Shown here: one piece after another, positions 8,443-32,000 of the stretch
How the letters are laid out: the number at the start of each line of letters is the position of its first letter
How positions within the stretch are numbered: position 1 is the stretch's first letter
Notes under the pieces: model-generated
Databases searched by the model: none
Told to the model about the DNA's origin: nothing
Seen by the model: the letters and a program-made list of their open reading frames with translations, nothing else
DNA from: Mycolicibacterium smegmatis
GTDB taxonomy: Bacteria; Actinomycetota; Actinomycetes; Mycobacteriales; Mycobacteriaceae
DNA: 32,000 bases
Assembly (NCBI RefSeq): GCF_001457595.1
Contig: NZ_LN831039.1
Location: 5,040,001-5,072,000, forward strand
Direction: 5' to 3'
Made by a program: the position numbers and the translations under genes

Positions 8443-9288
8443 TCAGCTTCGCGCAATCCGGGTCGCGGTGACAAAGCGGGGGCGACCTGTCAGGTCGTGG
8501 CGGGCGGTGACGTCGGTGAAATTGCCGTCGTGCGTGAACGCCTGGACCGTGCGGGCCGACGTGGTGTCGTCGTGTTCGACGGCGCATTTGCCGCCGTCGC
8601 GCAGCCAGCGGGCAGCCAGCGCCACGATGGGCCGGATGACGGCCATGCCGTCGGGCCCGCCGAACAGCGCGTGTGCCGGGTCGTGCTCGGCGACCTCGGG
8701 GTCCAGTTCGGCGCCTTCGGGGATGTAGGGCGGGTTGGACACCACGAGATCCACACCGCCGTCGAGGTCGGGCAGCAGGTCGGGGGCCGTGACGTCGGCG
8801 GCCAGCACCTCGACCGAGGTGCCCGCGGTGTTGCAGCGCGCGTATTCGAGCGCGGCGGGCGAATCCTCGACGGCGATGACGCGGGCCTGCGGGCGGTGCT
8901 GGGCCAGCGCCAGCGCGAGCGCCCCGGTTCCGGTGCACAGATCGACGATCACCGCGTCGCGGGGAAGTTGTTGTGCCACGGCCCATTCCAGTAGCGACTC
9001 AGTCTCCGGGCGCGGGATGAAGACGCCGGGACCCACCTCGAGCGTCAGCGGCCCGAACGCCGCGGTGCCGACGAGGTGCTGCAGCGGGATCCGTTTGGCG
9101 CGCGCGGCGACCAGGTGCTCGAACGCCGCGAGCGCCTCGGGATCTGGGTCGTCGACGAACATCAGCCTGCCGCGATCGACGCCCAGGGAGTGGGCGGCCA
9201 GCAGTTCGGCGTCGATGCGCGGGGTCGCCACGCCCGCGGCGGCGAGCGTGGCCGTCGCGGCCTCGATCGCGGTGCGCAGGCGCGTCAT
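8443..9288 (-). CDS. prmC: Release-factor glutamine N5-methyltransferase
   Basis: 281-aa ORF with the SAM motif VDLCTGTGALALA and the catalytic NPPY (VVSNPPYIP). It lies immediately downstream of prfA. Confidence 0.92.
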   Translation of the reverse strand: MTRLRTAIEAATATLAAAGVATPRIDAELLAAHSLGVDRGRLMFVDDPDPEALAAFEHLVAARAKRIPLQHLVGTAAFGPLTLEVGPGVFIPRPETESLLEWAVAQQLPRDAVIVDLCTGTGALALALAQHRPQARVIAVEDSPAALEYARCNTAGTSVEVLAADVTAPDLLPDLDGGVDLVVSNPPYIPEGAELDPEVAEHDPAHALFGGPDGMAVIRPIVALAARWLRDGGKCAVEHDDTTSARTVQAFTHDGNFTDVTARHDLTGRPRFVTATRIARS

Positions 9289-9298
9289 GGAAGCCGGA

Positions 9299-10378
9299 TC
9301 AGGCCTGCTGCAGGCGCGACTGTTTGTCGGCCGCGGCCAGCGCGTCGAGCAGCGCGTCCATATCGCCGTCGAGCACCTGGTCGAGGTTGTGCGCCTTGAA
9401 GTTGATGCGGTGATCGGCGATGCGGTTCTCGGGGAAGTTGTAGGTGCGGATCCGCTCGCTGCGGTCGACCGTGCGGATCTGGCTGGCGCGGTCGGCCGAC
9501 GCGTCGGCCTCGGCCTGCTCCTCGGCCAGGGCCTGCAACCGCGCGGCGAGCACCTGCATGGCGCGGGCCTTGTTCTGCAGCTGCGACCGCTCGTTCTGGC
9601 ACGTCACGACGATGTCCGTGGGCAGGTGGGTGATGCGCACCGCGGAGTCGGTGGTGTTGACGCCCTGACCGCCCTTGCCCGAGGAGCGGTAGACGTCGAT
9701 GCGCAGATCGGATTCGTCGATCTGGACTTCCTCGACCTCTTCGGGTTCGGGATAGACCAGGACACCCGCGGCCGAGGTGTGCACGCGGCCCTGCGATTCG
9801 GTGACGGGGACGCGCTGCACGCGGTGCACGCCGCCCTCGAACTTCAGCCGCGCCCACACACCGTCGGCGGAGTCGCCCTTGCTGCGGATCGACAGCGTCG
9901 CGTCCTTGTAGCCGCCCAGGTCGGACGTGGTCTCGTCGAGCATGGTCACGGTCCACCCGTGCCGCTCGGCGTAGCGGATGTACATGCGCGCCAGGTCGGC
10001 GGCGAACAGGGCCGATTCCTCGCCACCCTCGCCGGACTTCACCTCCAGCACGATGTCGTCGGCGTCGTGCGGATCACGCGGTGCCAGCAGGTCGGTCAGC
10101 TGGTTGTCCAGTTCGGCGACCTTCGCGGTGAGTTCTTCGACCTCGTCGGCGAAGCTGGCGTCGTCGGCCGCGAGCTCGCGGGCCGCCTCCAGATCGCCGC
10201 GGGCGGCCTCGAGCTTGCGGTAGCAGGCGACGATCGGCGACACCTGCGCGAACCGGCGGCCCACCTTGCGGGCAGCCCCGGCGTCGGCGTGCAGGGCCGG
10301 ATCAGCCAGCTGGCGCTCGAGGTCGGCGTGTTCGGCCAACAGCGCCTCAATTGCCGGTGCGGTATCCGTGCCGCTCAC
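9299..10378 (-). CDS. prfA: Peptide chain release factor 1
   Basis: 359-aa ORF with the GGQ motif ([20 protein letters not shown]) and the RF1-type PVT tripeptide ([10 protein letters not shown]). GTG start. Confidence 0.97.
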
Positions 10379-22055: not shown

Positions 22056-22131
22056 GCCCCCGTAGCTCAGGGGATAGAGCGTCTGCCTCCGGAGCAGAAG
22101 GCCGCAGGTTCGAATCCTGCCGGGGGCACCA
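22056..22131 (+). tRNA. tRNA-Arg, anticodon CCG, genomically encoded CCA
   Basis: Folded by hand. The acceptor stem is GCCCCCG/CGGGGGC. The D arm is GCTC-AGGGGATA-GAGC. The anticodon arm is TCTGC-CT CCG GA-GCAGA. The variable loop is AGGCC. The T arm is GCAGG-TTCGAAT-CCTGC, followed by the discriminator A and CCA. Confidence 0.95.
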
Positions 22132-22345
22132 CCTCAAAAACCGCCTCTCACCAGGAGATACGGTTTAATCCGACGGCCCTTCCCGGCAACCCTCAACAAT
22201 CATCGAACGATTTATCGCCTTCGCTGGAGTGTTGGATTCGTTAGCTGACTCCCACCCACCAGCCCTGGCGATTCGTTCGACGCTGCTGACAAGATCATGT
22301 GGAAGGATCGTCCGCGCCGAAGTACCGACGCCATGTGGGGGCCGA

Positions 22346-23935
22346 ATGAGCGATCCTATGCAAATCGCGCGACTTATTGATCGTGTGCTGCGTGGCGAAA
22401 TCCGCGTACCCGGCTTCCAGCGCGATTTCGTGTGGGAGCCCGACCGCGCAGCACTGTTGATGGATAGCATTTACAAGGAATATCCTTTTGGATCAATATT
22501 ACTGTGGCGAACTCGAAATCAATTGAAGACCGAGAAAAAGCTCGGAACGTTCGAGTTGCCCGAACCCGAAGCCGATTACCCCATCGACTACGTCCTCGAC
22601 GGACAACAACGAATCACATCAATATTCTCGACATTCCAAACCGTGCTGCCGCCATCTGACGAAGACCCAGAAGTATGGCTTCCGATATATTACGATTTCG
22701 GCGCTAAAGCGGACGCTCAAGACTCACAATTCCAAGCACTGTCGAAATCGCAAGTTGACGTTGCTAGACACTTTCCTCTGGCGGTGTTCTTTGACCCGGT
22801 TGAGTTCGCAGCGAAACAACGTGAATACGAACTTGACGACGATCGACTGAGAGAAATAGTAACCGTCCAATCTAGATTTTCTGGGGCCCTCATTCCGGTT
22901 GAGACTTTCTCGGGCGAGGATCGAACGAGCGTCGCCATAGTCTTCGAGCGGGTTAATCGGCAAGGCGTAAAACTCGACACTTTCCAACTGTTGACCGCAT
23001 GGACGTGGAGCGAGGAGTTTGATTTACAAGAGAAGTTCAAAGATCTGGCCGAACGTTTTGAGTCGTTCGGCTTTGAAGACATCGGCACGGATAACGATCT
23101 AATGTTGCGCTGCGCATCCGCCGTTTTGCGGGCAGACCCGTCGCCGACCGCATTGATCGACATCAATGGCGCAGAAGTTCGCGAGAAATTCGATGTGATC
23201 GTGAAGGCGCTCGACCGAACAGTCGACTACCTGAGAAATGAAATGCAAGTACGGCATCTCAAGTTTCTGCCGTACGCCGGTCTACTTATTCCACTTTGTG
23301 CGTACTTCTCCCGTAAACAGTCGACCGGCATCAGCGATGCGGACAATAGGGTCCTGCGACGATGGTTCTGGCGAACTACTTTCACCCATCGCTATAGCGG
23401 TAATCCGTCACGCAGCGTCAAGCGGGATGTAGAGGCCGCGATCGAATTGCGTGAAGGTAATGAGTCGTCGCTGGACAAGCTTGATGCCGAAATTGGGACG
23501 GACTTCTATCTTGGAAACACATTCAATAACCGAACTGTAGCTACTCGCGCCTTCATTTTGCAATTGGCGGCCCACTCCCCTAGATCGTTCATCAGTGGCG
23601 GAACGATCACACTGGACGACGTACTGTCTGAACCTAACCGACGCGAATACCACCATTGTTATCCGAAAGCGTATGTAGCCAACTCCGGGGCAACGTCGAT
23701 CTACGACGTCAACTGCCTTGCGAACTTTGCGTTTCTCAGCCGATCCGAAAACCGCGAGATTTCGGACAAAGCACCCTCGGTCTATCGCTCGCTCATGGCG
23801 GACAACGTAGACGACATCCTGGCCTCACAAGTCATTCATCAGAATCTGTTCAATGATGATTTCGACGAATTCCTGCGAGAACGCGCCCTGATGCTGGTGT
23901 TCGATGCGGGGAACTTGATGGACGTGAGTAACTGA
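22346..23935 (+). CDS. DUF262 (ParB/Srx-like NTPase) plus DUF1524-like His-Me finger nuclease; GmrSD-family type IV (modification-dependent) restriction candidate
   Basis: The N-terminus has IRVPGFQRDFVWEP and DYVLDGQQRITSI (DGQQR motif). The C-terminus has EYHHCYPKAY...NCLANFAFLSRSENREISDKAP (H-x-x-P ... N ... N pattern). The track ORF starts at 22229. I prefer the ATG at 22346 (MSDPMQIARLIDRV...) with a GGGGG run 5 nt upstream. The gene is AT-richer than the flanks. Confidence 0.85.
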   Translation: MSDPMQIARLIDRVLRGEIRVPGFQRDFVWEPDRAALLMDSIYKEYPFGSILLWRTRNQLKTEKKLGTFELPEPEADYPIDYVLDGQQRITSIFSTFQTVLPPSDEDPEVWLPIYYDFGAKADAQDSQFQALSKSQVDVARHFPLAVFFDPVEFAAKQREYELDDDRLREIVTVQSRFSGALIPVETFSGEDRTSVAIVFERVNRQGVKLDTFQLLTAWTWSEEFDLQEKFKDLAERFESFGFEDIGTDNDLMLRCASAVLRADPSPTALIDINGAEVREKFDVIVKALDRTVDYLRNEMQVRHLKFLPYAGLLIPLCAYFSRKQSTGISDADNRVLRRWFWRTTFTHRYSGNPSRSVKRDVEAAIELREGNESSLDKLDAEIGTDFYLGNTFNNRTVATRAFILQLAAHSPRSFISGGTITLDDVLSEPNRREYHHCYPKAYVANSGATSIYDVNCLANFAFLSRSENREISDKAPSVYRSLMADNVDDILASQVIHQNLFNDDFDEFLRERALMLVFDAGNLMDVSN

Positions 23936-23937
23936 AC

Positions 23938-24081
23938 GTGGGTACGGCCCGTCAGACCTCGAACAAGCCTTCCGCTTCCTCGGCTGCGGTGATCCGCGCG
24001 GCTCGTATCAACAACATCGGCACAGCCGGTCACGCACGACTGCACCGCCCACAGCGAGCGTTGCCGCGTGGCCGGTCATGA
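23938..24081 (+). CDS. Possible 47-codon ORF (GTG start 2 nt after the DUF262 stop) carrying the conserved peptide AVIRAARINNIGTAGHARLHRPQRALPRG; alternatively the 3' relic of a paralogue of the 29408-29876 ORF
   Basis: Read by hand: VGTARQTSNKPSASSAAVIRAARINNIGTAGHARLHRPQRALPRGRS*. Its 3' 86 nt match 29775-29860, with differences almost only at third codon positions. It is below the ORF-track size cutoff. Confidence 0.3.
   Translation: MGTARQTSNKPSASSAAVIRAARINNIGTAGHARLHRPQRALPRGRS
23969..24077 (+). repeat. Copy 1 of a dispersed direct repeat of about 110 nt (partner 29760-29871)
   Basis: Aligned by hand. The core 23986-24071 versus 29775-29860 gives 70 of 86 identical, ungapped. CTTCCGCT lies upstream and CCGGTC downstream in both copies. 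Confidence 0.85.
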
Positions 24082-25596
24082 GCCCGATTCGGCATCCGGT
24101 GAGTCAGCGTGCTCATTTTCGGCGTATAGGTTTTCGTCGGGCAAACCTGGCAAAAACGGGCCGTGATTCAAAATCATATCCTCAGGCACCTGGGCAAGGT
24201 GTTCGCGTGCCGATTGGCGCTGCTTAGGTGCCCTTCTTTTACTTGCTTTGACGGCGGCACGAAACTCGTCAAGCGTATAAATTGTATCGTCCGAGCCATA
24301 CATATAGTAGACCGGCGCCTTTTCTTCCATTCCGACCCGCTCGCCATTAACGGTTGCGCGATCATCAAGCATGATAAGCAACGGAACCTGGTAACCTACA
24401 ATGTATGAATGGTCCCAGTAGCGACCTTCATCCCAAGCATTATCAGCAAGCTGATCGTAATGGCCCATTAAGTCAACGACGTGCTGACGGCTCAAATATT
24501 CGCCAGAAGCGCGCCGTAAGAGAATGCGACGGCACGCATCACGCGCACCGTCGTGAAACGACCAGCAATAGAGCACAGCGGGGTACTTCTTATGAGGCAC
24601 CGTTTTGGCGATTGGTTCTGCGACTCGGATCTTTTTGTCATACTCCGCCACACGGGCGTAGCCCGCTTCGTCGATGAAACAGACACCGAGGTTAGCGCGC
24701 TTGAGCTCCTGTAAGAACTTCACACCACTAGTTTTCAGTGTAATTAGATTGAATTCCTTTACGTCATCTTCGTCTGCGCCAAACGGAGACACAAAATAGG
24801 CTGGCTCGGCATACTGTCCCATATCCTTAAGCAACGCTTTGTAAAGCCGCCGAAAGTTCCAGTCTTTAAGGGAGTATCCGACAAATACTAGTGTGCGGGT
24901 GGCTAGAAGCTCCGTCAGTAGCCCACCCAAGACACCTTCGCGCAACGACTTGAGACTTCGCTTGTAGTCACTTTCCGTCGCGACGATACTGCCGAGGTTT
25001 GTCATGCTTCCATGGATTTTCAAGACTCGGCGTCCGGGCATTTTCCATAGCGCGATGTCGTCACCCGTGACGAACGGAATAGCTGCACATTCTTCTTCGA
25101 AATACGTGTCCCAATTAGTAGTGACGATATCCTCTAGATAAGGCATGGCTGCTAGTTCCTGATGGAAACGTCGTGCGTAGTACCTAAGAGTCCAGAAGCT
25201 ATCGACGTAATCGAACTTCGCTCTTACCATCTGGATAAATTCGCGACGGCCAAATTTTTTCACGAATGCTTCAATAACCTCAGGGAAAGAACCGGGTTCG
25301 TCTAGCTGAAGCATTTCTACAGCACGCTGGTAGACCGTCTGCGGGAACACCGTAGGCACCTCGGTACTGATCCCAGCACCGGCGAAGATTACAACTTGTC
25401 GCATGTGGGCCGCACGCACCAGCTCTACGGGCAACTCGAAGTCATGATCGAGTCCACAGTGCGTGCATTGACAGATCTCTGCGTGCTGGGCACCGTCCCC
25501 AGCCCGAACTATCGCGCCTTCTCCCGCCATGTGTTCGATGGTCGCAGATGTACGGTTACTGGCTTCTGAGCGGCGCGCCTTTAGGCGTGCCGCCAT
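24076..25596 (-). CDS. SIR2_2-family (NAD+-consuming) domain protein with a C-terminal domain of about 200 aa that I cannot assign; candidate stand-alone abortive-infection effector
   Basis: Motifs present are VVIFAGAGIS (NAD-binding glycine motif), IVTTNWDTYFE (catalytic Asn), VLKIHGSMTNLGSIVATESDY (catalytic His) and LVFVGYSLKDWNFRRLY. An alternative start is the ATG at 25530 (MAGEGAIV...). The 25596 ATG lies in the GC-rich flank, inside the TauE-like remnant, so 25530 may be the native start. This is the most AT-rich stretch among the 60-nt lines I hand-counted. Confidence 0.85.
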   Translation of the reverse strand: MAARLKARRSEASNRTSATIEHMAGEGAIVRAGDGAQHAEICQCTHCGLDHDFELPVELVRAAHMRQVVIFAGAGISTEVPTVFPQTVYQRAVEMLQLDEPGSFPEVIEAFVKKFGRREFIQMVRAKFDYVDSFWTLRYYARRFHQELAAMPYLEDIVTTNWDTYFEEECAAIPFVTGDDIALWKMPGRRVLKIHGSMTNLGSIVATESDYKRSLKSLREGVLGGLLTELLATRTLVFVGYSLKDWNFRRLYKALLKDMGQYAEPAYFVSPFGADEDDVKEFNLITLKTSGVKFLQELKRANLGVCFIDEAGYARVAEYDKKIRVAEPIAKTVPHKKYPAVLYCWSFHDGARDACRRILLRRASGEYLSRQHVVDLMGHYDQLADNAWDEGRYWDHSYIVGYQVPLLIMLDDRATVNGERVGMEEKAPVYYMYGSDDTIYTLDEFRAAVKASKRRAPKQRQSAREHLAQVPEDMILNHGPFLPGLPDENLYAENEHADSPDAESGS

Positions 25597-26212: not shown

Positions 26213-26345
26213 TCAATCGCTGAGCTTGATCGACGGTCCATCGGGCTTGCCCACGGTGCCCCGATTCACTTTCACGCGCGTTTCCCCCTTAGCCTCGATC
26301 CACCGATGAATTGGCTGGTCGCAGGGTGTCGTGACGAGGAAAGTG
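26213..26345 (-). pseudogene. 3' fragment of a minus-strand gene, apparently truncated by the IS1380-family insertion
   Basis: The frame reads ...TFLVTTPCDQPIHRWIEAKGETRVKVNRGTVGKPDGPSIKLSD* with about 70% GC3. The frame runs open into the IS with no plausible start codon. Confidence 0.3.
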
Positions 26346-27949
26346 CCTTCTGAGCTGTGATGATGAGTGTTCTCTAGGCACTTATCGGCACAACTTCGAA
26401 AGGCACTTCCGGTGAAAGTGTCCCATAGGTTCGCTGCGTCGTCGGCGGTCTTCGATGATGCCCATCTCGTGTCGTGCGCCGGTCTGGTGCCGGTAATGAC
26501 GCTGGCCACCCAGACCGGACTGTCACAGTTGCTGGCCGACAAGGTTCGTATCAGCGAACCACGGATCAAGTCCGGGTCGGCCAACCCGTCGCCGAAGCTG
26601 CTCACCGTGGTCGCCGGAATGTGCGCCGGCGCCGACAGCATTGATGACCTCGACCTCGTGCGTGGCGGCGGGATGAAGACGCTCTTCGATGGGGTCTATG
26701 CACCATCGACGATCGGAACACTGTTGCGGGAGTTCACCTTCGGACACGCCCGGCAGTTGGAGTCGGTCCTGCGTCATCATCTGGCCGCACTCTGTGCGCG
26801 GGTGGACCTGCTGCCCGGATCCGACACGGGGGCGTTCATCGACATCGACTCACTGCTGCGCCCGGTCTATGGCCACGCCAAACAGGGTGCCTCCTACGGG
26901 CATACCAAGATCGCTGGTAAGCAGGTTCTGCGTAAAGGGCTCTCCCCGTTGGCGACGACGATCAGCACCCCCGGAGCGGCGCCGGTGATCGCCGGGATGC
27001 GGCTGCGCGCCGGTAAGACCAGTTCCGGGAAGGGTGCGGGCCGCATGGTCGCCCAAGCCATCGCCACCGCCCGCGCCGCCGGCGTGCGCGGGCAACTGCT
27101 GGTGCGTGGCGATTCGTCCTACGGCACCCGGTCGGTGGTGGGCGCCTGCCGAGCCCACAATGCGCACTTCTCGGTGGTGATGACCCGCAATACCGCGGTT
27201 GATCGGGCCATCAGTTCGATCGACGAGCAGGCCTGGGAGCCGGTCAACTATCCCGGTGCAGTGCGTGATCCCGACACCGGTGACTGGATTTCTGATGCCG
27301 AGGTCGCCGAGGTCAGCTACACCGCCTTCGCCTCTACCAAAGATCGGTTCACCGCGCGGTTGGTGGTGCGGCGAGTCAAAGACGCGAGATTTCGGGACGC
27401 GCTGTTCCCGGTGTGGCGGTATCACCCGTTCTTCACCAACACAGACTTGCCGACCGCCGAGGCTGACATCACCCACCGCCAGCACGCGATCATCGAAACC
27501 GTCTTCGCCGATCTGATCGACGGACCCCTGGCCCACATGCCCTCAGGACAGTTCGGTGCCAACAGTGCGTGGGTGTTGTGCGCGGCGATCGCGCACAACC
27601 TGCTGCGCGCCGCCGGCGTGCTCGCAGGAGGTGCCCACGTGGTTGCCCGCGGCGCGACGCTGCGCCGCAAGATCGTCAACATTCCCGCCCGTCTGGCCCG
27701 ACCCCAGCGTCGACCGATCCTGCACCTCCCCGAGCACTGGCCCTGGACAGAGCACTGGCTCACGTTGTGGCGCAACACCATCGGATACAGCCCACCGCTA
27801 CCGGCAACGACCTGACCAACGCGCCGAACAGGCCCAACCGGAGCACACAGGAAAAGCTGGGCAGACCAGCAACTACCGCATGCCCGCAACACCGAACGCA
27901 GCAGAAACCACACACGGACACCTCAAGGAGGGCCGCTCCACGGATTCAG
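26346..27949 (+). mobile_element. IS1380-family insertion sequence (boundaries approximate)
   Basis: It holds a single transposase ORF. The right end is tentatively ...CCACGGATTCAGG (reverse complement CCTGAATCCGTGG, a CC-initiated terminus as I recall for this family). I could not find a convincing matching left inverted repeat or a target duplication. Confidence 0.5.
26367..27815 (+). CDS. IS1380-family DDE transposase
   Basis: 482-aa ORF. SSAVFDDAHLVSCAGLVPVMTLATQTGL...MCAGADSIDDLDLVRGGGM...FGHARQL...VRGDSSYG...HRQHAIIETVFADLIDGPLAHMPSGQFGANSAW matches actinobacterial IS1380-family transposases as I recall them. In-frame GTGs at 26412 and 26418 are alternative starts. Confidence 0.9.
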   Translation: MFSRHLSAQLRKALPVKVSHRFAASSAVFDDAHLVSCAGLVPVMTLATQTGLSQLLADKVRISEPRIKSGSANPSPKLLTVVAGMCAGADSIDDLDLVRGGGMKTLFDGVYAPSTIGTLLREFTFGHARQLESVLRHHLAALCARVDLLPGSDTGAFIDIDSLLRPVYGHAKQGASYGHTKIAGKQVLRKGLSPLATTISTPGAAPVIAGMRLRAGKTSSGKGAGRMVAQAIATARAAGVRGQLLVRGDSSYGTRSVVGACRAHNAHFSVVMTRNTAVDRAISSIDEQAWEPVNYPGAVRDPDTGDWISDAEVAEVSYTAFASTKDRFTARLVVRRVKDARFRDALFPVWRYHPFFTNTDLPTAEADITHRQHAIIETVFADLIDGPLAHMPSGQFGANSAWVLCAAIAHNLLRAAGVLAGGAHVVARGATLRRKIVNIPARLARPQRRPILHLPEHWPWTEHWLTLWRNTIGYSPPLPATT

Positions 27950-27962
27950 GCTTAGTGATCGG

Positions 27963-28060: not shown

Positions 28061-28088
28061 TGAAACGCCCTGGGTTTCCCGGAGGCTC
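28061..28088. repeat. IS3-family terminal inverted repeat (orfB-proximal end)
   Basis: See the mobile-element entry. 25 of 28 match to the reverse complement of 29380-29407. Confidence 0.9.
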
Positions 28089-28091
28089 GGG

Positions 28092-28931
28092 CTATTGGAT
28101 TCCGATCAAGGGTTGGTCGGTCCGGTATGCATCGTAGAACGCAGCTTCGAACTCGGCAGGTGGGATGTCGCCGAGGTAGCTGTGTAGTCGGCTGGTGTTG
28201 TGCCAGTAGACCCAGCTGAGCGTCGCCAACTCGACGTCTTCGACGGTTTTCCATGGCCCGGTGCGGGCGGGGCCGTAGATCAGTTCGGCCTTGTAGTAGC
28301 CGTTGACCGTCTCCGCGAGAGCGTTGTCGAAACTGTCCCCGACGGTCCCGATTGACGGGACTGCGCCGATCTCAGCGAGCCTTTCCCCGTAGCGAATGGA
28401 GGTGAATTGCGACCCGGCATCCGAGTGACATCTCAAGCCTGGCAACATATTTCCACGTGACCACCGCGCCATCTCCAACGCGTCGAGCACCATCGAGGTC
28501 CGCATATGCGAGGCTACCCGCCAGCCCACGATCATCCGCGAATACGCGTCGATGATGAAGCACACATACGCCACCCCGGCCCAGGTCGGCACGAACGTCA
28601 GGTCGGTCACCCAGAGCTGGTTCGGGGCGGTCGCGGTGAAGTTGCGCTTCACCAAATCCGGATGCCGGGCCGCGGCCGGGTCGGGTTTGGTGGTGCGGAC
28701 CCGTTTGCCGCGCCGGACTCCCTCGATGCCGGCGGCCCGCATCAGCCGGGCCACCTGATCCCGGCCGACGTCATGACCCTCGCGGCGGGCGGTTTTCCAG
28801 AGCTTGCGGGCCCCATAGACGCAGTAGTTGTCTTTCCAGAGCTGACACAACGCCGGCCCCAGGACGGCGTCCCGCAGGGCCCGCGCCGACGGGACCCGGG
28901 CTTTGGTGTCGTAGTAGGTGCTCAGGGCCAC
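28092..28931 (-). CDS. IS3-family transposase OrfB (DDE catalytic domain), probably made as an OrfAB fusion by -1 frameshifting
   Basis: The DDE triad context is present: WVTDLTFV, CHSDAGSQFTS, NALAETVNGYYKAE. The orfB frame has no stop across at least the last 40 codons of orfA. Confidence 0.9.
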   Translation of the reverse strand: MALSTYYDTKARVPSARALRDAVLGPALCQLWKDNYCVYGARKLWKTARREGHDVGRDQVARLMRAAGIEGVRRGKRVRTTKPDPAAARHPDLVKRNFTATAPNQLWVTDLTFVPTWAGVAYVCFIIDAYSRMIVGWRVASHMRTSMVLDALEMARWSRGNMLPGLRCHSDAGSQFTSIRYGERLAEIGAVPSIGTVGDSFDNALAETVNGYYKAELIYGPARTGPWKTVEDVELATLSWVYWHNTSRLHSYLGDIPPAEFEAAFYDAYRTDQPLIGIQ

Positions 28932-29008
28932 CTGCAGGCCTGCGCTGCGCAGGACGGTGCAGATGGGCTCGACCCCGAACTCCTCGCGATTGGCGTCGAT
29001 GAACTCGA

Positions 29009-29353
29009 CTATTTCTTGTGTTGGCGGTCGAGCTCCGCCCCGAAGAAACTCGCTGCACGTTTCAGAATCTCGTTGGCGCGCTTGAGTTCTCGATTCTCCT
29101 GCTCGAGCTCCTGCACCCTTTTCGACTCCGCGGTCGTCACCCCGGGTGCCAGGCCTTCGTCGATGTCGGCCTGACGGACCCAGGTGCGCACCGATTCCAC
29201 TCCGTAGCCGAGCTGGCGAGCAACGCGCTGCACCGTGCCCTGCTCGGTGCCCAGCTCCGCCCGGAGCGTGCGGACCATCCGTACCGCGGCGGCCTTCTCC
29301 TCGGCACTGTATCGACGCGTCGTGGGTTTCCCGGGCGACTGTTCCTTCGGCAT
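29009..29353 (-). CDS. IS3-family transposase OrfA (HTH plus leucine zipper)
   Basis: 114-aa ORF with RRYSAEEKAAAVRMV...VQRVARQLGYGVESVRTWVRQ (HTH) and a heptad region VQELEQENRELKRANEILKRA. Confidence 0.9.
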   Translation of the reverse strand: MPKEQSPGKPTTRRYSAEEKAAAVRMVRTLRAELGTEQGTVQRVARQLGYGVESVRTWVRQADIDEGLAPGVTTAESKRVQELEQENRELKRANEILKRAASFFGAELDRQHKK

Positions 29354-29379
29354 ACCTGCATCCTCGTTTCCAAGGTCAG

Positions 29380-29407
29380 GAGCCTCCGGGATTTCCAGGG
29401 CGTTTCA
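29380..29407. repeat. IS3-family terminal inverted repeat (orfA-proximal end)
   Basis: See the mobile-element entry. Confidence 0.9.
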
Positions 29408-29876
29408 GCTCGACCGGGGTGGTTTGGGAGCCAAGACCGAAATCGAACTCAGCGCCAAGCCGTACGAACAGCTTTTGGACAAGATGCCGAAGTTGCAAAG
29501 CGGCAGCCGCGCCGAGTGGCGACGCTCCCAAGGCATCGCAGACGATTCCGACAAACCCCCACCCGCCCTGGTGGCTGCCAACGCTGACGAGCCGGTCGAC
29601 GTCGAGATCGTCTCAGAGAGCGATCAACAAAACGACGCCCACCCGATGACACCAGAGGATGACGATTGGCAGCCAGACGAAGCCACCGGGCCGGGAATCG
29701 ACGGCTACGACGATCAACCGAACCCGTTCGGCGAGAGCGACCCACCGCCTGACGGCTTGCTTCCGCTCGATGAGGCGGTGATCCGTGCCGCTCGCATAAA
29801 TAACATGGGCACCGCTGGGCATGCGAGACTGCACCGACCGCAGCGGGCGTTGCCACGTGGTCTCTCCGGTCGGTAA
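29408..29876 (+). pseudogene. 3' part of the IS3-interrupted ORF; an acidic, Pro-rich protein ending in the conserved basic peptide
   Basis: ...AKTEIELSAKPYEQLLDKMPKLQSGSRAEWRR...DDDWQPDEATGPGIDGYDDQPNPFGESDPPPDGLLPLDEAVIRAARINNMGTAGHARLHRPQRALPRGLSGR*. GC3 is about 70%. An internal ATG (MPKLQSG...) could still give a truncated product. Confidence 0.45.
29760..29871 (+). repeat. Copy 2 of the dispersed direct repeat of about 110 nt (partner 23969-24077)
   Basis: See copy 1. Here it forms the last 30 or so codons of the 29408-29876 ORF. Confidence 0.85.
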
Positions 29877-29908
29877 CCCGGCAGGGTCAAAACCTGCCGG
29901 GAAACACC
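29877..29908 (+). other. Hairpin CCCGGCAGG-gtcaaaa-CCTGCCGGG resembling the T-arm/acceptor 3' half of the tRNA-Arg; candidate relic att site, or simply a terminator hairpin
   Basis: 29881-29901 (GCAGGGTCAAAACCTGCCGGG) versus tRNA positions 22104-22124 (GCAGGTTCGAATCCTGCCGGG) gives 18 of 21 identical, including a 7-nt loop. CACC follows in both, with a 1-nt offset. Confidence 0.4.
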
Positions 29909-30011
29909 TGATTATGCAGGTCAAACCGTTGCACCCGAAGCGCTCAACAATGATTCACGCATCCGGTGCAGATGGGAAATTGGAATTTCCCTATGGCTCA
30001 ACTGTTTTCGG

Positions 30012-30989
30012 TCATGGACCGTCTCTGCGCGGCTGCACCCCAAAGAACGCGCCCCCACCCGAACCCGGTTGATTGTCAAAGCCGGTGTAGTCAAAAGTGA
30101 TTCCGTTTGTGTCCCACCCGCCAGGGTTGCCGATGGACGGACCCCAAATCCCGCCAGGCATCATGACGTAAGGTGTTGAAACCGTGAGCCTTTCGGCGAA
30201 CTGATCGAGCATGTCGGGTTCCTGTTGCCGCGCTTTCTCGAATAGCTCCGCTTGGCGTTGGCGGTCACTGATGTAAAGCCCGGTTCGGATCGCTTGGCCG
30301 GGCTTGTCGAGCACGACAGTCATCACGTTGTCGCCCACCTTGTCTGTGAGCGCGCTCGTTTCCAGTACGGCGTCCCTGAGAATGTCCCTCACTTGGTCGG
30401 GGACTTCATCGGCGGGGCAACTGAGCGCAGTCAATCGTGCCTTCGCACGGTCGATGATCGGGTTATTCACCATACCAACAGCATCGATGTAGAACGCTTT
30501 GAATTGCTGTGTATCAGGCCGCATTTCGATGCTTGTGACCGAATCACCTTGGGCCTTAGTGCGAAACATTACCTTGGTTACCATGCCGTCTTTGCGTTGC
30601 ACACCTGACGCGAGAACGATTGTCGCACGCTTCTTTTCACTGGCTAGCAGATGTGAGTAAGCGTCTCGCAGCGCGTTCTCCACGCGGTTGCGAATCTCTC
30701 GGTAATGCAAGTCCGGTGGCGGCTGCCAGAACGTCATCATGGCGGGCGCAAGCTCGTCGTATCCGCTGATCGCTTCTGCGATGAGTCGATCAGTCGGCTT
30801 GCCGTCGAGAAACGCCAGCCCGGTATAGCCCAGCACGACCCAACAGTCGATGCCCAGAACTACAACGGTCTTGTTGCTGTGCGGATCGTATTCGCCGGTT
30901 GGATTATCTGGCGTCGGCTCGACGCTAACGAATCGGTCGCTCGCATGGAACGCCCAATTTCCCACGACTGCGGCGACGATCAGCGTCAT
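30012..30989 (-). CDS. Hypothetical 325-aa protein, translationally coupled to the integrase; the N-terminus is reminiscent of Ntn-hydrolase/proteasome-beta/HslV folds
   Basis: The ATG overlaps the integrase TGA (ATGA at 30986-30989). The N-terminus is M-TLIVAAVVGNWAFHASDRFVS...SNKTVVVLGIDCWVVLGYTG. That gives Thr directly after the initiator Met, Asp at position 17 from that Thr, and a Lys-containing strand about 39 residues in. The C-terminal tail is Gly-rich. I recognise no other motif. Confidence 0.75.
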   Translation of the reverse strand: MTLIVAAVVGNWAFHASDRFVSVEPTPDNPTGEYDPHSNKTVVVLGIDCWVVLGYTGLAFLDGKPTDRLIAEAISGYDELAPAMMTFWQPPPDLHYREIRNRVENALRDAYSHLLASEKKRATIVLASGVQRKDGMVTKVMFRTKAQGDSVTSIEMRPDTQQFKAFYIDAVGMVNNPIIDRAKARLTALSCPADEVPDQVRDILRDAVLETSALTDKVGDNVMTVVLDKPGQAIRTGLYISDRQRQAELFEKARQQEPDMLDQFAERLTVSTPYVMMPGGIWGPSIGNPGGWDTNGITFDYTGFDNQPGSGGGAFFGVQPRRDGP

Positions 30990-32000
30990 GCCGACACGCC
31001 CACGCTGGCTGCCAACGTATCGGCCCGCAACGCCGAGAGAGCGTCGGCAACGGCGATGTCACGGCCCGACACCTGTTGCTGATAGATCAGGCTGGCTTTG
31101 TGGGTGGAATGCCGCAGCCGCGCCATCGTCTCGACCAGGTTGCCGACCTGAGCCGTCATGGTGCCCGCGAAGTGACGCAGATCGTGCACCCGCATATCGT
31201 TGTGCCCAACTGCACTCAGCGCCGGTTTGAAAACGTCTTTGGCGAACACCCGATCATTGACGTGGCACCCGCCGCGCGCGGGCGTGAACAGAAGCGAATC
31301 ACCCGCTTTATCAACGTGATTGGCTAGGTGCGCTCTTATGTCATCCCGAATGTGTGGAGGGATCACCACCTTGGCGGGCTTGCCGTCTTTAGGCGTGTCG
31401 ATGATGCATTCGCCGCTTCGGTGGGTTACACCACGCGCCACCGTGACCACAGTGCAATCGGCATCGAAGTCTTTTCGGCGCAGCTCCGACACTTCCCCGT
31501 ACCGCAGGCCGCACCACGCAGAAATCAACACCAGGGCGCGGAAGCGGGCGTTTTTGGTGTCGCCACCCAACTTGTCGGCAATGGCCTCAAGCTCGGGAAT
31601 CGTTGGCACAACGGCCTGGCGCTTGGTCTTCGGGTTCATTGCCCGTTCGATCATGCAGGGGTTGCGCTCAATCAATCCGTCTCGTACGGCGGTATTGCAA
31701 ACCATGTTGAGCAAACCGTACGCGTGAGCGTTGCGCGTCGGGTGCGTCGAGCCGAGGCCGGAGAACCACGTCCGCACCAAAGCAGGACTCAGGTCACGAA
31801 CCGCGTACTTGCCGAGCTTGGGCGCGATGTAGTTCGTCAGCGACGCCTCATAACCGATTCGGGTTCGCGGTTTGAGGTTGCGTTCACTGATCACCGCTTT
31901 CGCGTATTCGGCGACGGTGACCGCCACGGCCTTATTTTCCTCGGTGATCACTTCGGGCGGTTTCCACGACGACAGTCCCTCATCGCTCGCCGCGCACCGG
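30986..32000 (-). CDS. int: Tyrosine recombinase / phage-type integrase (the 5' end may extend beyond the window)
   Basis: The catalytic signature is present: CGLRYGEVSELRR (Arg I), VHDLRHFAGT (H-x-x-R) and RLRHSTHKASLIYQQ (His ... Tyr nucleophile). The frame stays open from the GTG at 31951 to position 32000. Confidence 0.92.
   Translation of the reverse strand, partial: RCAASDEGLSSWKPPEVITEENKAVAVTVAEYAKAVISERNLKPRTRIGYEASLTNYIAPKLGKYAVRDLSPALVRTWFSGLGSTHPTRNAHAYGLLNMVCNTAVRDGLIERNPCMIERAMNPKTKRQAVVPTIPELEAIADKLGGDTKNARFRALVLISAWCGLRYGEVSELRRKDFDADCTVVTVARGVTHRSGECIIDTPKDGKPAKVVIPPHIRDDIRAHLANHVDKAGDSLLFTPARGGCHVNDRVFAKDVFKPALSAVGHNDMRVHDLRHFAGTMTAQVGNLVETMARLRHSTHKASLIYQQQVSGRDIAVADALSALRADTLAASVGVSA

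Follow-up and report, generated by a model that had tools for sequence, protein, structure and literature searches.

ORF325, a predicted divergent proteasome-like threonine hydrolase encoded directly behind the integrase of a tRNA-Arg island in Mycolicibacterium smegmatis

To our knowledge, no function has been assigned to bacterial proteasome homologues beyond HslV and the 20S core. We analysed a gene predicted to encode such a homologue, ORF325 (an open reading frame (ORF) of 325 amino acids; 30012..30989, minus strand), which lies next to an integrase gene in a 32,000-nucleotide (nt) stretch of the Mycolicibacterium smegmatis genome (contig NZ_LN831039.1, positions 5,040,001 to 5,072,000; hereafter the window). 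Fuchs, Alva and Lupas (2021) catalogued 22 new proteasome homologues, with informative gene context for none (PMC8665760). The 'Distant Actinobacterial proteasome Homolog' (DAH) of that work, with representative WP_085249540.1 and 77 sequences (nr90), is rich in Actinobacteria and also occurs in Proteobacteria, other bacteria and phages; it has no propeptide and carries an extra C-terminal domain of unknown fold (PMC8665760). Structure modelling suggested that ORF325 is a divergent N-terminal threonine hydrolase of the proteasome-beta/HslV type, with a core of about residues 1-264.

The AlphaFold2 model of ORF325, built with 25 homologues, reached a mean predicted local distance difference test score (pLDDT) of 85.3 and a predicted template modelling score (pTM) of 0.87. 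Its elements followed the order S1-S2-S3-S4-H1-H2-S5..S8-H3-H4-S9-S10-H5 and then short beta strands, which is the alpha-beta-beta-alpha order of 20S beta subunits, PrcB and HslV (MEROPS T1, PF00227). A Foldseek search of the PDB returned 70 matches at E ≤ 1e-3, and the best 50 were all 20S proteasome beta subunits, Mycobacterium tuberculosis PrcB or Anbu (best E 5.4e-7, probability 1.0, target-normalised TM score 0.5-0.7); the Anbu structure 5nyw was among the matches with E 1.2e-5. Among the predicted viral structures of the BFVD, the model matched best a Gordonia phage Nymphadora protein and viral entries annotated as proteasome beta. The model thus bears out the N-terminal nucleophile (Ntn) hydrolase fold that the original prediction had proposed from the first residues of the product.

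The predicted active site fell at the expected places of this fold. Thr2 (codon ACG, 30984..30986, minus strand, as for all codons below) opens strand S1 and is the predicted nucleophile, becoming Thr1 after removal of the methionine. Asp18 (GAC, 30936..30938) closes S2 (model strand E12-18), 16 residues after the Thr as in 20S beta and HslV, and would correspond to proteasome Asp17. Lys40 (AAG, 30870..30872), the putative equivalent of Lys33, stands at the start of S3, immediately before model strand E41-45, while G54-Y55-T56-G57 (30819..30830) ends S4, with Gly57 as the likely counterpart of the oxyanion-hole Gly47; a Lys at the start of S3 and a Gly at the end of S4 are likewise features of 20S beta and HslV. 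The product begins MTLIVAAVVGNWAFHASDR and further on reads HSNKTVVVLG, so the Asp near the Thr and the SNKTVVVLG strand described in the original prediction are present as D18 and K40. With HslV, ORF325 shares the M-T-x-I-V start and the missing propeptide, and an ungapped comparison of its N-terminus with Escherichia coli HslV gave identity at T1, I3, V4, A15 and D17; relative to HslV, a 6-residue loop is inserted before Lys40.

To assess conservation, we counted residues in an alignment of 191 full-length family members. T2 was present in 183 (the remaining 8 being gaps), D18 in 187, R19 in 186, N39 in 189, K40 in 190, Y55 in 178 and G57 in 189, and T2 was invariant in the family alignments A1, A2 and A3. 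In a 42-sequence alignment reaching down to 20-25% identity, T2, D18, R19, K40, D67, G129 and P273 were invariant, and M1, D35, N39, Y55, G57, A59, T66, V218, G219, P284, R321 and P325 were at least 90% conserved; G129 and the V218-G219 pair look structural. The Thr1/Asp17/Lys33 arrangement claimed at the outset is therefore essentially invariant, as Thr2, Asp18 and Lys40, down to that level of divergence. On the model and this residue pattern, it is highly probable that ORF325 has a proteasome-like alpha-beta-beta-alpha fold with an intact triad.

Several results weigh against this assignment. ORF325 was not recognised by Pfam, PHROGs, PADLOC, NCBIfam or PDB sequences with a single-sequence and two profile queries, and neither ORF325 nor 42 family members matched PF00227 at E ≤ 1. 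Compared with 20S beta and HslV, ORF325 shows 11-18% identity and no PF00227 match, carries the insertion before the Lys, and has a longer H1-H2 region and a C-terminal extension of ~60 residues. We aligned the family profile by hhalign with E. coli HslV alone, which gave no useful or significant alignment; with a 4-sequence bait alignment (probability 12%, E 0.0024, not significant), in which three of the four sequences were approximate and served as baits only; and with 120 PF00227 proteins plus HslV (probability 0.6%, E 0.1, not significant). The profile comparison suggested as a check in the original prediction was thus non-significant. The alignments to proteasome and HslV proteins, though not significant, were collinear over 165-175 columns and consistent in register: they started exactly at the mature Thr1 of beta5, behind the propeptide, and paired D18 with D17, G57 with G47, A59 with A49 and D67 with D51. 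K40 was paired with K31-K32, 1-2 residues off K33. The equivalences of these residues were drawn from their secondary-structure positions and from weak alignments, and neither the family alignments nor hhalign revealed an invariant Ser or Asp at places matching Ser129, Asp166 and Ser169. As sequence and profile similarity is not significant, the superfamily membership of ORF325 rests on fold and active-site pattern. Weak matches to triosephosphate isomerase, enoyl-CoA hydratase and an efflux pump covered short helical stretches only and were rejected as chance.

That no counterparts of Ser129, Asp166 and Ser169 were found in these alignments, and that sequence models of the active family do not detect ORF325, would fit a non-catalytic scaffold with an Ntn fold, like the alpha subunits of the proteasome. 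However, Thr2, Asp18 and Lys40 are 96-99% conserved and Gly57 99%, and the Thr is residue 2 in 172 of the 191 members. We consider a scaffold very improbable, because such conservation of the triad and placement of the start would not be expected without selection on catalysis. The predicted catalytic hydrolase therefore remains our preferred description of the protein.

The C-terminal extension (about residues 265-325; 30015..30197, minus strand) was delimited by model secondary structure, pLDDT and conservation. It is made up of short beta strands, in which P273, P284 and GGW are conserved, and ends in a Q-P-R-x-x-x-P tail with an almost invariant R321; the model is without the last 14 residues. 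This beta-rich extension is specific to the ORF325 family and probably mediates regulation, assembly or substrate choice.

ORF325 also differs from the described systems in its partners. HslV has ~175 amino acids and is encoded beside HslU, whereas ORF325 has 325, and no AAA+ unfoldase or HslU gene occurred in any of the more than 30 contexts examined; near ORF325 or its relatives, the contexts examined held no HslU, other AAA+ partner or alpha subunit. ORF325 resembles Anbu and BPH as a stand-alone bacterial Thr1 homologue without a dedicated unfoldase and differs from them in its C-terminus and its mobile genomic setting. ATP-grasp and transglutaminase-like neighbours typify the Anbu operon, and none was present at any locus of the ORF325 family examined. 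With connectase, ORF325 shares a proteasome fold plus an added C-terminal domain; connectase, however, occurs in methanogens only and is devoid of helices H1 and H2, both of which ORF325 retains. Connectase, an archaeal proteasome-like protein ligase, has an unusual, specific activity and shows that bulk proteolysis need not follow from the fold (PMC8665760). This ligase activity, and the little protease activity known for Anbu and BPH, count against a plain protease (PMC8665760); the chemistry of ORF325 could accordingly differ from proteolysis.

A word-indexed search identified 59 homologues, of which all with an organism name belonged to Mycobacterium or Mycolicibacterium; none carried a domain or a name that hints at function. 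When 1.8 billion cluster representatives were searched exhaustively with a profile, the family grew to 1,115 clusters (counted at 50% identity) at E ≤ 1e-3, of which 521 also passed E ≤ 1e-10. Most members of these clusters were 300-340 amino acids long and aligned from the first residue, and the taxa included Mycobacterium, Mycolicibacterium, Nocardia, Streptomyces, Gordonia phages and scattered other phyla. By description, this family and DAH are alike in distribution, occurrence in phages, missing propeptide, C-terminal extension and the lack of a conserved, informative gene context. They differ in size (77 sequences at nr90 for DAH), and the DAH paper contains no link to integrases or lysogeny modules. 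WP_085249540.1 was not among the family cluster members listed, and in the literature it is cited only by PMC8665760. The ORF325 family is probably DAH.

ORF325 is, with near certainty, a real gene. A protein identical to its product was present on 23 contigs, and the ratio of nonsynonymous to synonymous substitution rates (dN/dS) was 0.07-0.14 against homologues of ~80% identity; the gene is under purifying selection. The two low guanine-plus-cytosine (G+C) counts of the original prediction (48% and 58%) were recomputed as 48.3% (30481-30540) and 58.3% (30121-30180), compared with 57.7% for ORF325, 59.3% for the island that carries it and 68.2% for the backbone. The ATG at 30989 is the first start codon past the preceding in-frame stop of this frame, so a longer N-terminus is impossible; nor is the start codon internal, because 172 of the 191 full-length members open with (M/V/L)-T.

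Upstream of ORF325 lies a tyrosine integrase gene, int (30986..32000, minus strand; Pfam Phage_integrase, SAM_3 and Int_M; PHROG 1), of which the window holds the 3' 338 codons. The window edge cuts this gene; its full length of 396 amino acids and its start at about window position 32176 were taken from an identical locus in complete genomes (L001 8814-10004), so that positions past 32000 are extrapolated. The minus-strand sequence of the junction is TCG GCA TGA CGC TG. In it, the stop codon TGA of the integrase (30988-30986) overlaps the ATG of ORF325 (30989-30987) as ATGA (30986..30989), exactly as the original prediction had described. No Shine-Dalgarno-like GGAGG was found within 17 nt 5' of the ORF325 ATG, which fits termination-reinitiation at the ATGA junction. 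The overlap suggests that ORF325 shares a transcript with int and is probably co-translated with it. A promoter and terminator scan of 29400-32000, untuned for mycobacteria, gave nothing over the shuffled expectation. The same 4-nt overlap of integrase and family gene occurs in Mycobacterium elephantis and Mycobacterium asiaticum (L012/L013), with identities of 57% for the ORF and 49% for the integrase. Overlaps of 4 nt are a common type of gene junction; the one here is therefore unremarkable alone.

Integrase and ORF325 belong to a ~10.3 kb island that is integrated at tRNA-Arg(CCG) (22056..22131, plus strand; ARAGORN), and the integrase is apparently intact. The 3' end of the tRNA gene (22104-22131) is the proximal attachment (att) site, and its core occurs only once inside the window. 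The distal att repeat, matching at 25 of 27 nt, lies past the window end at ~32397-32423, about 220 nt upstream of the int start (direct repeat 8567-8593 / 19462-19488 in L001). The island order is att/tRNA-Arg, GmrSD, SIR2_2, an insertion sequence (IS) with a DDE_Tnp_1_4 transposase, an IS3 element, a truncated gene, ORF325, int and the distal att repeat. The original prediction had placed ORF325 between an att relic and int. Since the distal att repeat lies upstream of int, ORF325 is instead inside the island, as the first cargo gene behind the integrase; the supposed relic, read there as a repeat copy, was rejected and proved to be the 3' coding end of a gene for an HGG zinc-ribbon protein, present in two copies.

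A tblastn search identified homologues in temperate Gordonia phages, namely Ruthy gp33, CarolAnn gp36 and Blino gp36 (33-34% identity, E ~1e-40), and none on plasmids. These homologues retain T2, D18, R19, N39, K40 and G57. In Ruthy and CarolAnn, the family gene shares a central block of leftward genes with the integrase and the immunity repressor, joined by RelBE in Ruthy. The Ruthy copy follows int at a distance of 2.9 kb, five genes downstream, and CarolAnn has a serine integrase on the strand opposite the family gene. CarolAnn lysogens express genes 34-36 according to RNA sequencing by Montgomery et al. (PMC6426606). The same phage has at least two defence systems, with genes 43/44 the only one identified (PMC6426606). 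CarolAnn gp43/gp44 and Sbash gp30/31, which act in prophage-mediated defence, occupy the same genomic slot, the leftward repressor/integrase block, and gp43/gp44 have no sequence relationship to gene 36. Its place in a lysogenically expressed block makes gene 36 a candidate defence gene. The premise that lysogenically expressed defence genes cluster near the integration cassette thus found support from genomic context in these phages; the prophage-defence type of setting, with an integrase/repressor region and lysogenic expression, is seen in homologues of 33-34% identity and not in the window gene itself.

Two further phage-related sequences were observed. The uncharacterised Nymphadora protein (BFVD A0A142KAQ6, 289 amino acids) covers the whole ORF325 model with E 1.4e-13 and 14% identity, and by its modelled structure hints that the family has a phage branch even more remote than these homologues; CarolAnn gp43/gp44 target phages of cluster CZ, to which Nymphadora belongs. 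A prophage copy (L042 6001-6938; IMG/VR UViG 2740892321_000002), 50% identical in its best segment, has 7 in-frame stops; it is apparently a decayed pseudogene and was left out of the analysis for its stop codons.

To survey linkage to integrases, we called these at related loci with a locally built hidden Markov model of tyrosine recombinases. The results showed that family homologues adjoin tyrosine integrases in at least 9 lineages. The integrase gene is directly upstream and co-directional in the window, at L012/L013, in a Limnocylindrales bin (L023, 1-nt gap) and in Mycobacterium paragordonae (L029-31, with a decayed integrase); it is convergent and adjacent at L015, L018, L037 and in a soil-metagenome group (L051-59), and lies within 3 kb at L019 and in phage Ruthy. 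The proposed linkage therefore held, but the overlap is not a fixed feature of the family, since int is far from the family gene, or convergent, in several lineages. In the closest homologue group (81% identity), a ThsB-like TIR gene stands 10 nt upstream, with BREX alongside, and no integrase was called within the 8 kb upstream or ~4.5 kb downstream examined. At L017 (39% identity), a divergent SIR2 gene is separated by a 79-nt spacer, in an island at tRNA-Arg as in the window. One relative overlaps a DUF222/HNH gene by 4 nt, and the other neighbours included AbiE, arrays of toxin-antitoxin genes, IS elements and integrative elements of actinomycetes. Within actinobacteria, temperate phages and integrative islands carry the family as a mobile accessory gene, and it is very likely that ORF325 itself is integrase-proximal mobile cargo.

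The linkage to integrases might also mean that ORF325 serves integration or excision of the element, for example by processing or degrading the integrase, excisionase or repressor. Co-directional linkage to a tyrosine recombinase in four lineages, with a spacing or overlap of 0-4 nt in three and one Chloroflexota bin included, fits this explanation, as does the convergent, adjacent arrangement in at least four more. However, the serine integrase of CarolAnn on the opposite strand, the five-gene distance in Ruthy and the TIR-linked group near BREX, where no integrase was called, all speak against it, and the convergent layouts exclude obligatory co-expression. We regard such a function as improbable.

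A defence or exclusion role for this cargo is suggested by analogy with the settings described above; we put it forward tentatively, as a possibility that leans towards the doubtful side. The following points tell against it. In the literature searched, no resistance assay links any family member to defence, and CarolAnn genes 34-36 are expressed only 'at somewhat lower levels' (PMC6426606). No conserved partner gene was found: in 20 further loci the neighbours were heterogeneous, and the small downstream ORFs were unrelated. Three non-actinobacterial contexts contained no mobile or defence genes. In addition, no family of PADLOC-DB v2 matched ORF325 at E ≤ 1.

Some of these points would also suit an active proteasome-like enzyme (a peptidase, an amidase or a connectase-like transpeptidase) that has a phage-unrelated job, with a small molecule or a protein of the host or the element as its substrate, and is carried on mobile DNA as a fitness gene. 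The three non-actinobacterial members lie among ordinary metabolic and membrane genes, no PADLOC model matches ORF325, the new proteasome homologues came without informative context and connectase is a ligase (PMC8665760). The actinobacterial clade, however, is found consistently by integrases, in lysogeny modules, or beside TIR, SIR2, AbiE and toxin-antitoxin genes, and we judge a phage-unrelated job unlikely, although still worth serious consideration. It would also be conceivable that the protein acts in counter-defence or as a weapon between elements, a phage or island protease that destroys immune proteins of the host or of rivals. The gene is carried by real temperate phages, a structural relative exists in phage Nymphadora, and the phage-borne proteasome homologues PPH and AAH are known (PMC8665760). 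Nevertheless, the CarolAnn copy is reported as expressed in the lysogen and belongs to the leftward lysogeny block, not to early lytic genes, and the gene is kept in phage-less islands alongside host defence genes; a counter-defence function is therefore quite improbable in our assessment.

The remaining island genes were annotated as follows. The cargo next to the tRNA is a GmrSD-family type IV restriction gene (22229..23935, plus strand; Pfam GmrSD_N; PADLOC PDC-M55C / HEC-05), followed by a SIR2_2 gene of the ThsA/PDC-S25-like type (24076..25596, minus strand; Pfam, PADLOC). The DDE_Tnp_1_4 IS (26293-27950, 1,658 bp; transposase 26367-27815) is missing in CP082846.1 and CP089215.1, the loci of which are otherwise identical, and a 5-bp overlap of its flanks is consistent with a target-site duplication; CP082846.1 carries a 2.25 kb PRiA4_ORF3 plus ISL3 insertion between GmrSD and SIR2. 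The IS3-family element (28061..29407, minus strand; 39-nt inverted repeats; Pfam HTH_Tnp_1 and rve) is inserted into the HGG zinc-ribbon gene, which is convergent with ORF325 and of which a 3' remnant is left (29424..29876, plus strand). A second fragment of such a gene lies beside and downstream of SIR2 (23986-24071). The gene is intact at L017 (7525-8433) and L012 (19500-20321) and encodes ~270-300 amino acids, with an N-terminal Cys/His 'HGG' zinc-ribbon (weak NCBIfam HGG_STG match), a middle part that is acidic and disordered, and the conserved motif DEAVIRAARINNxGxAGHARLHRPQRALPRG at the C-terminus.

Further observations concerned related islands and contexts. Mycobacterium sp. NAZ190054 (L017) carries a different island with shared modules at the same tRNA-Arg. 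Its SIR2_2 (8467-9921) is 91% identical to that of the window, whereas identity between the adjacent proteasome-like proteins is only 39%. The two genes, divergent across the short spacer at L017, stand 4.4 kb from each other in the window, where two IS separate them. The SIR2 pairing in the two islands reflects either module shuffling or a recurrent SIR2/Ntn-hydrolase association. Just outside the distal att repeat, a 454-amino-acid protein (L001 6922-8286) has no Pfam, PADLOC or NCBIfam match, and its 45%-identical homologue (464 amino acids, L029 4249-5643) is encoded ~2.4 kb from the M. paragordonae proteasome-like gene, which makes it a second neighbour that recurs. L025 (4960-8990; also L026-L028, group P0005) contains a tight co-directional run of five genes for 295, 213, 229, 261 and 329 amino acids, which ends in a DUF1883-TIR protein (PADLOC PDC-S66 / ThsB-like) and stands next to brxB and brxC; together with the proteasome-like gene, this run could form a multi-gene defence operon. 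On a non-actinobacterial metagenome contig (L070 2898-6007), the family gene overlaps by 4 nt the end of a gene for a 705-amino-acid thioredoxin-domain (DsbH-like) protein; the type of junction is as with int, but the upstream partner differs.

Taken as a whole, our favoured reading is that ORF325 encodes a catalytically competent, highly divergent threonine hydrolase that travels as mobile cargo and protects the pair of host and element. In this mechanism, int and ORF325 would share a transcript and be coupled through termination-reinitiation. The nucleophile Thr2 would be uncovered by methionine aminopeptidase, with no propeptide to remove and Thr being permissive at P1'; Asp18 and Lys40 would complete a proteasome-type triad, and Gly57 would form the oxyanion hole. 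The enzyme would presumably cleave peptide bonds, with connectase-like transpeptidation possible too, and the C-terminal extension may regulate or target it. Expressed from the prophage or island, such a threonine peptidase may exclude phages or competing elements by cleaving a phage or host protein. We advance this combination with reserve, as somewhat short of an even chance of being right in full. A more specific form, in which the family is an immune effector, a self-contained proteasome-type threonine protease that its C-terminal extension or tail keeps inactive until infection activates it, perhaps in some lineages through a nucleotide signal from the neighbouring TIR or SIR2 protein, appears rather unlikely; if true, it would be the first threonine-protease anti-phage system and the first function of any orphan bacterial proteasome homologue.

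The locus and its relatives give one orphan family of proteasome homologues a consistent actinobacterial setting, next to integrases in tRNA-linked islands, in lysogeny modules and among TIR, SIR2, AbiE, BREX and GmrSD neighbours. The family itself has probably been catalogued already; new here are its size, its association with integrases and lysogeny modules in actinobacteria, and a ready experimental system. CarolAnn gene 36 is an existing handle, since it belongs to a lysogen-expressed block of a phage with a second defence activity still unassigned. If the protein is an exclusion protease, it would represent a new catalytic class in bacterial immunity and a first physiological role for an orphan proteasome relative; if it is not, the analysis still annotates a widespread family of ~1,100 clusters that is blank in databases.

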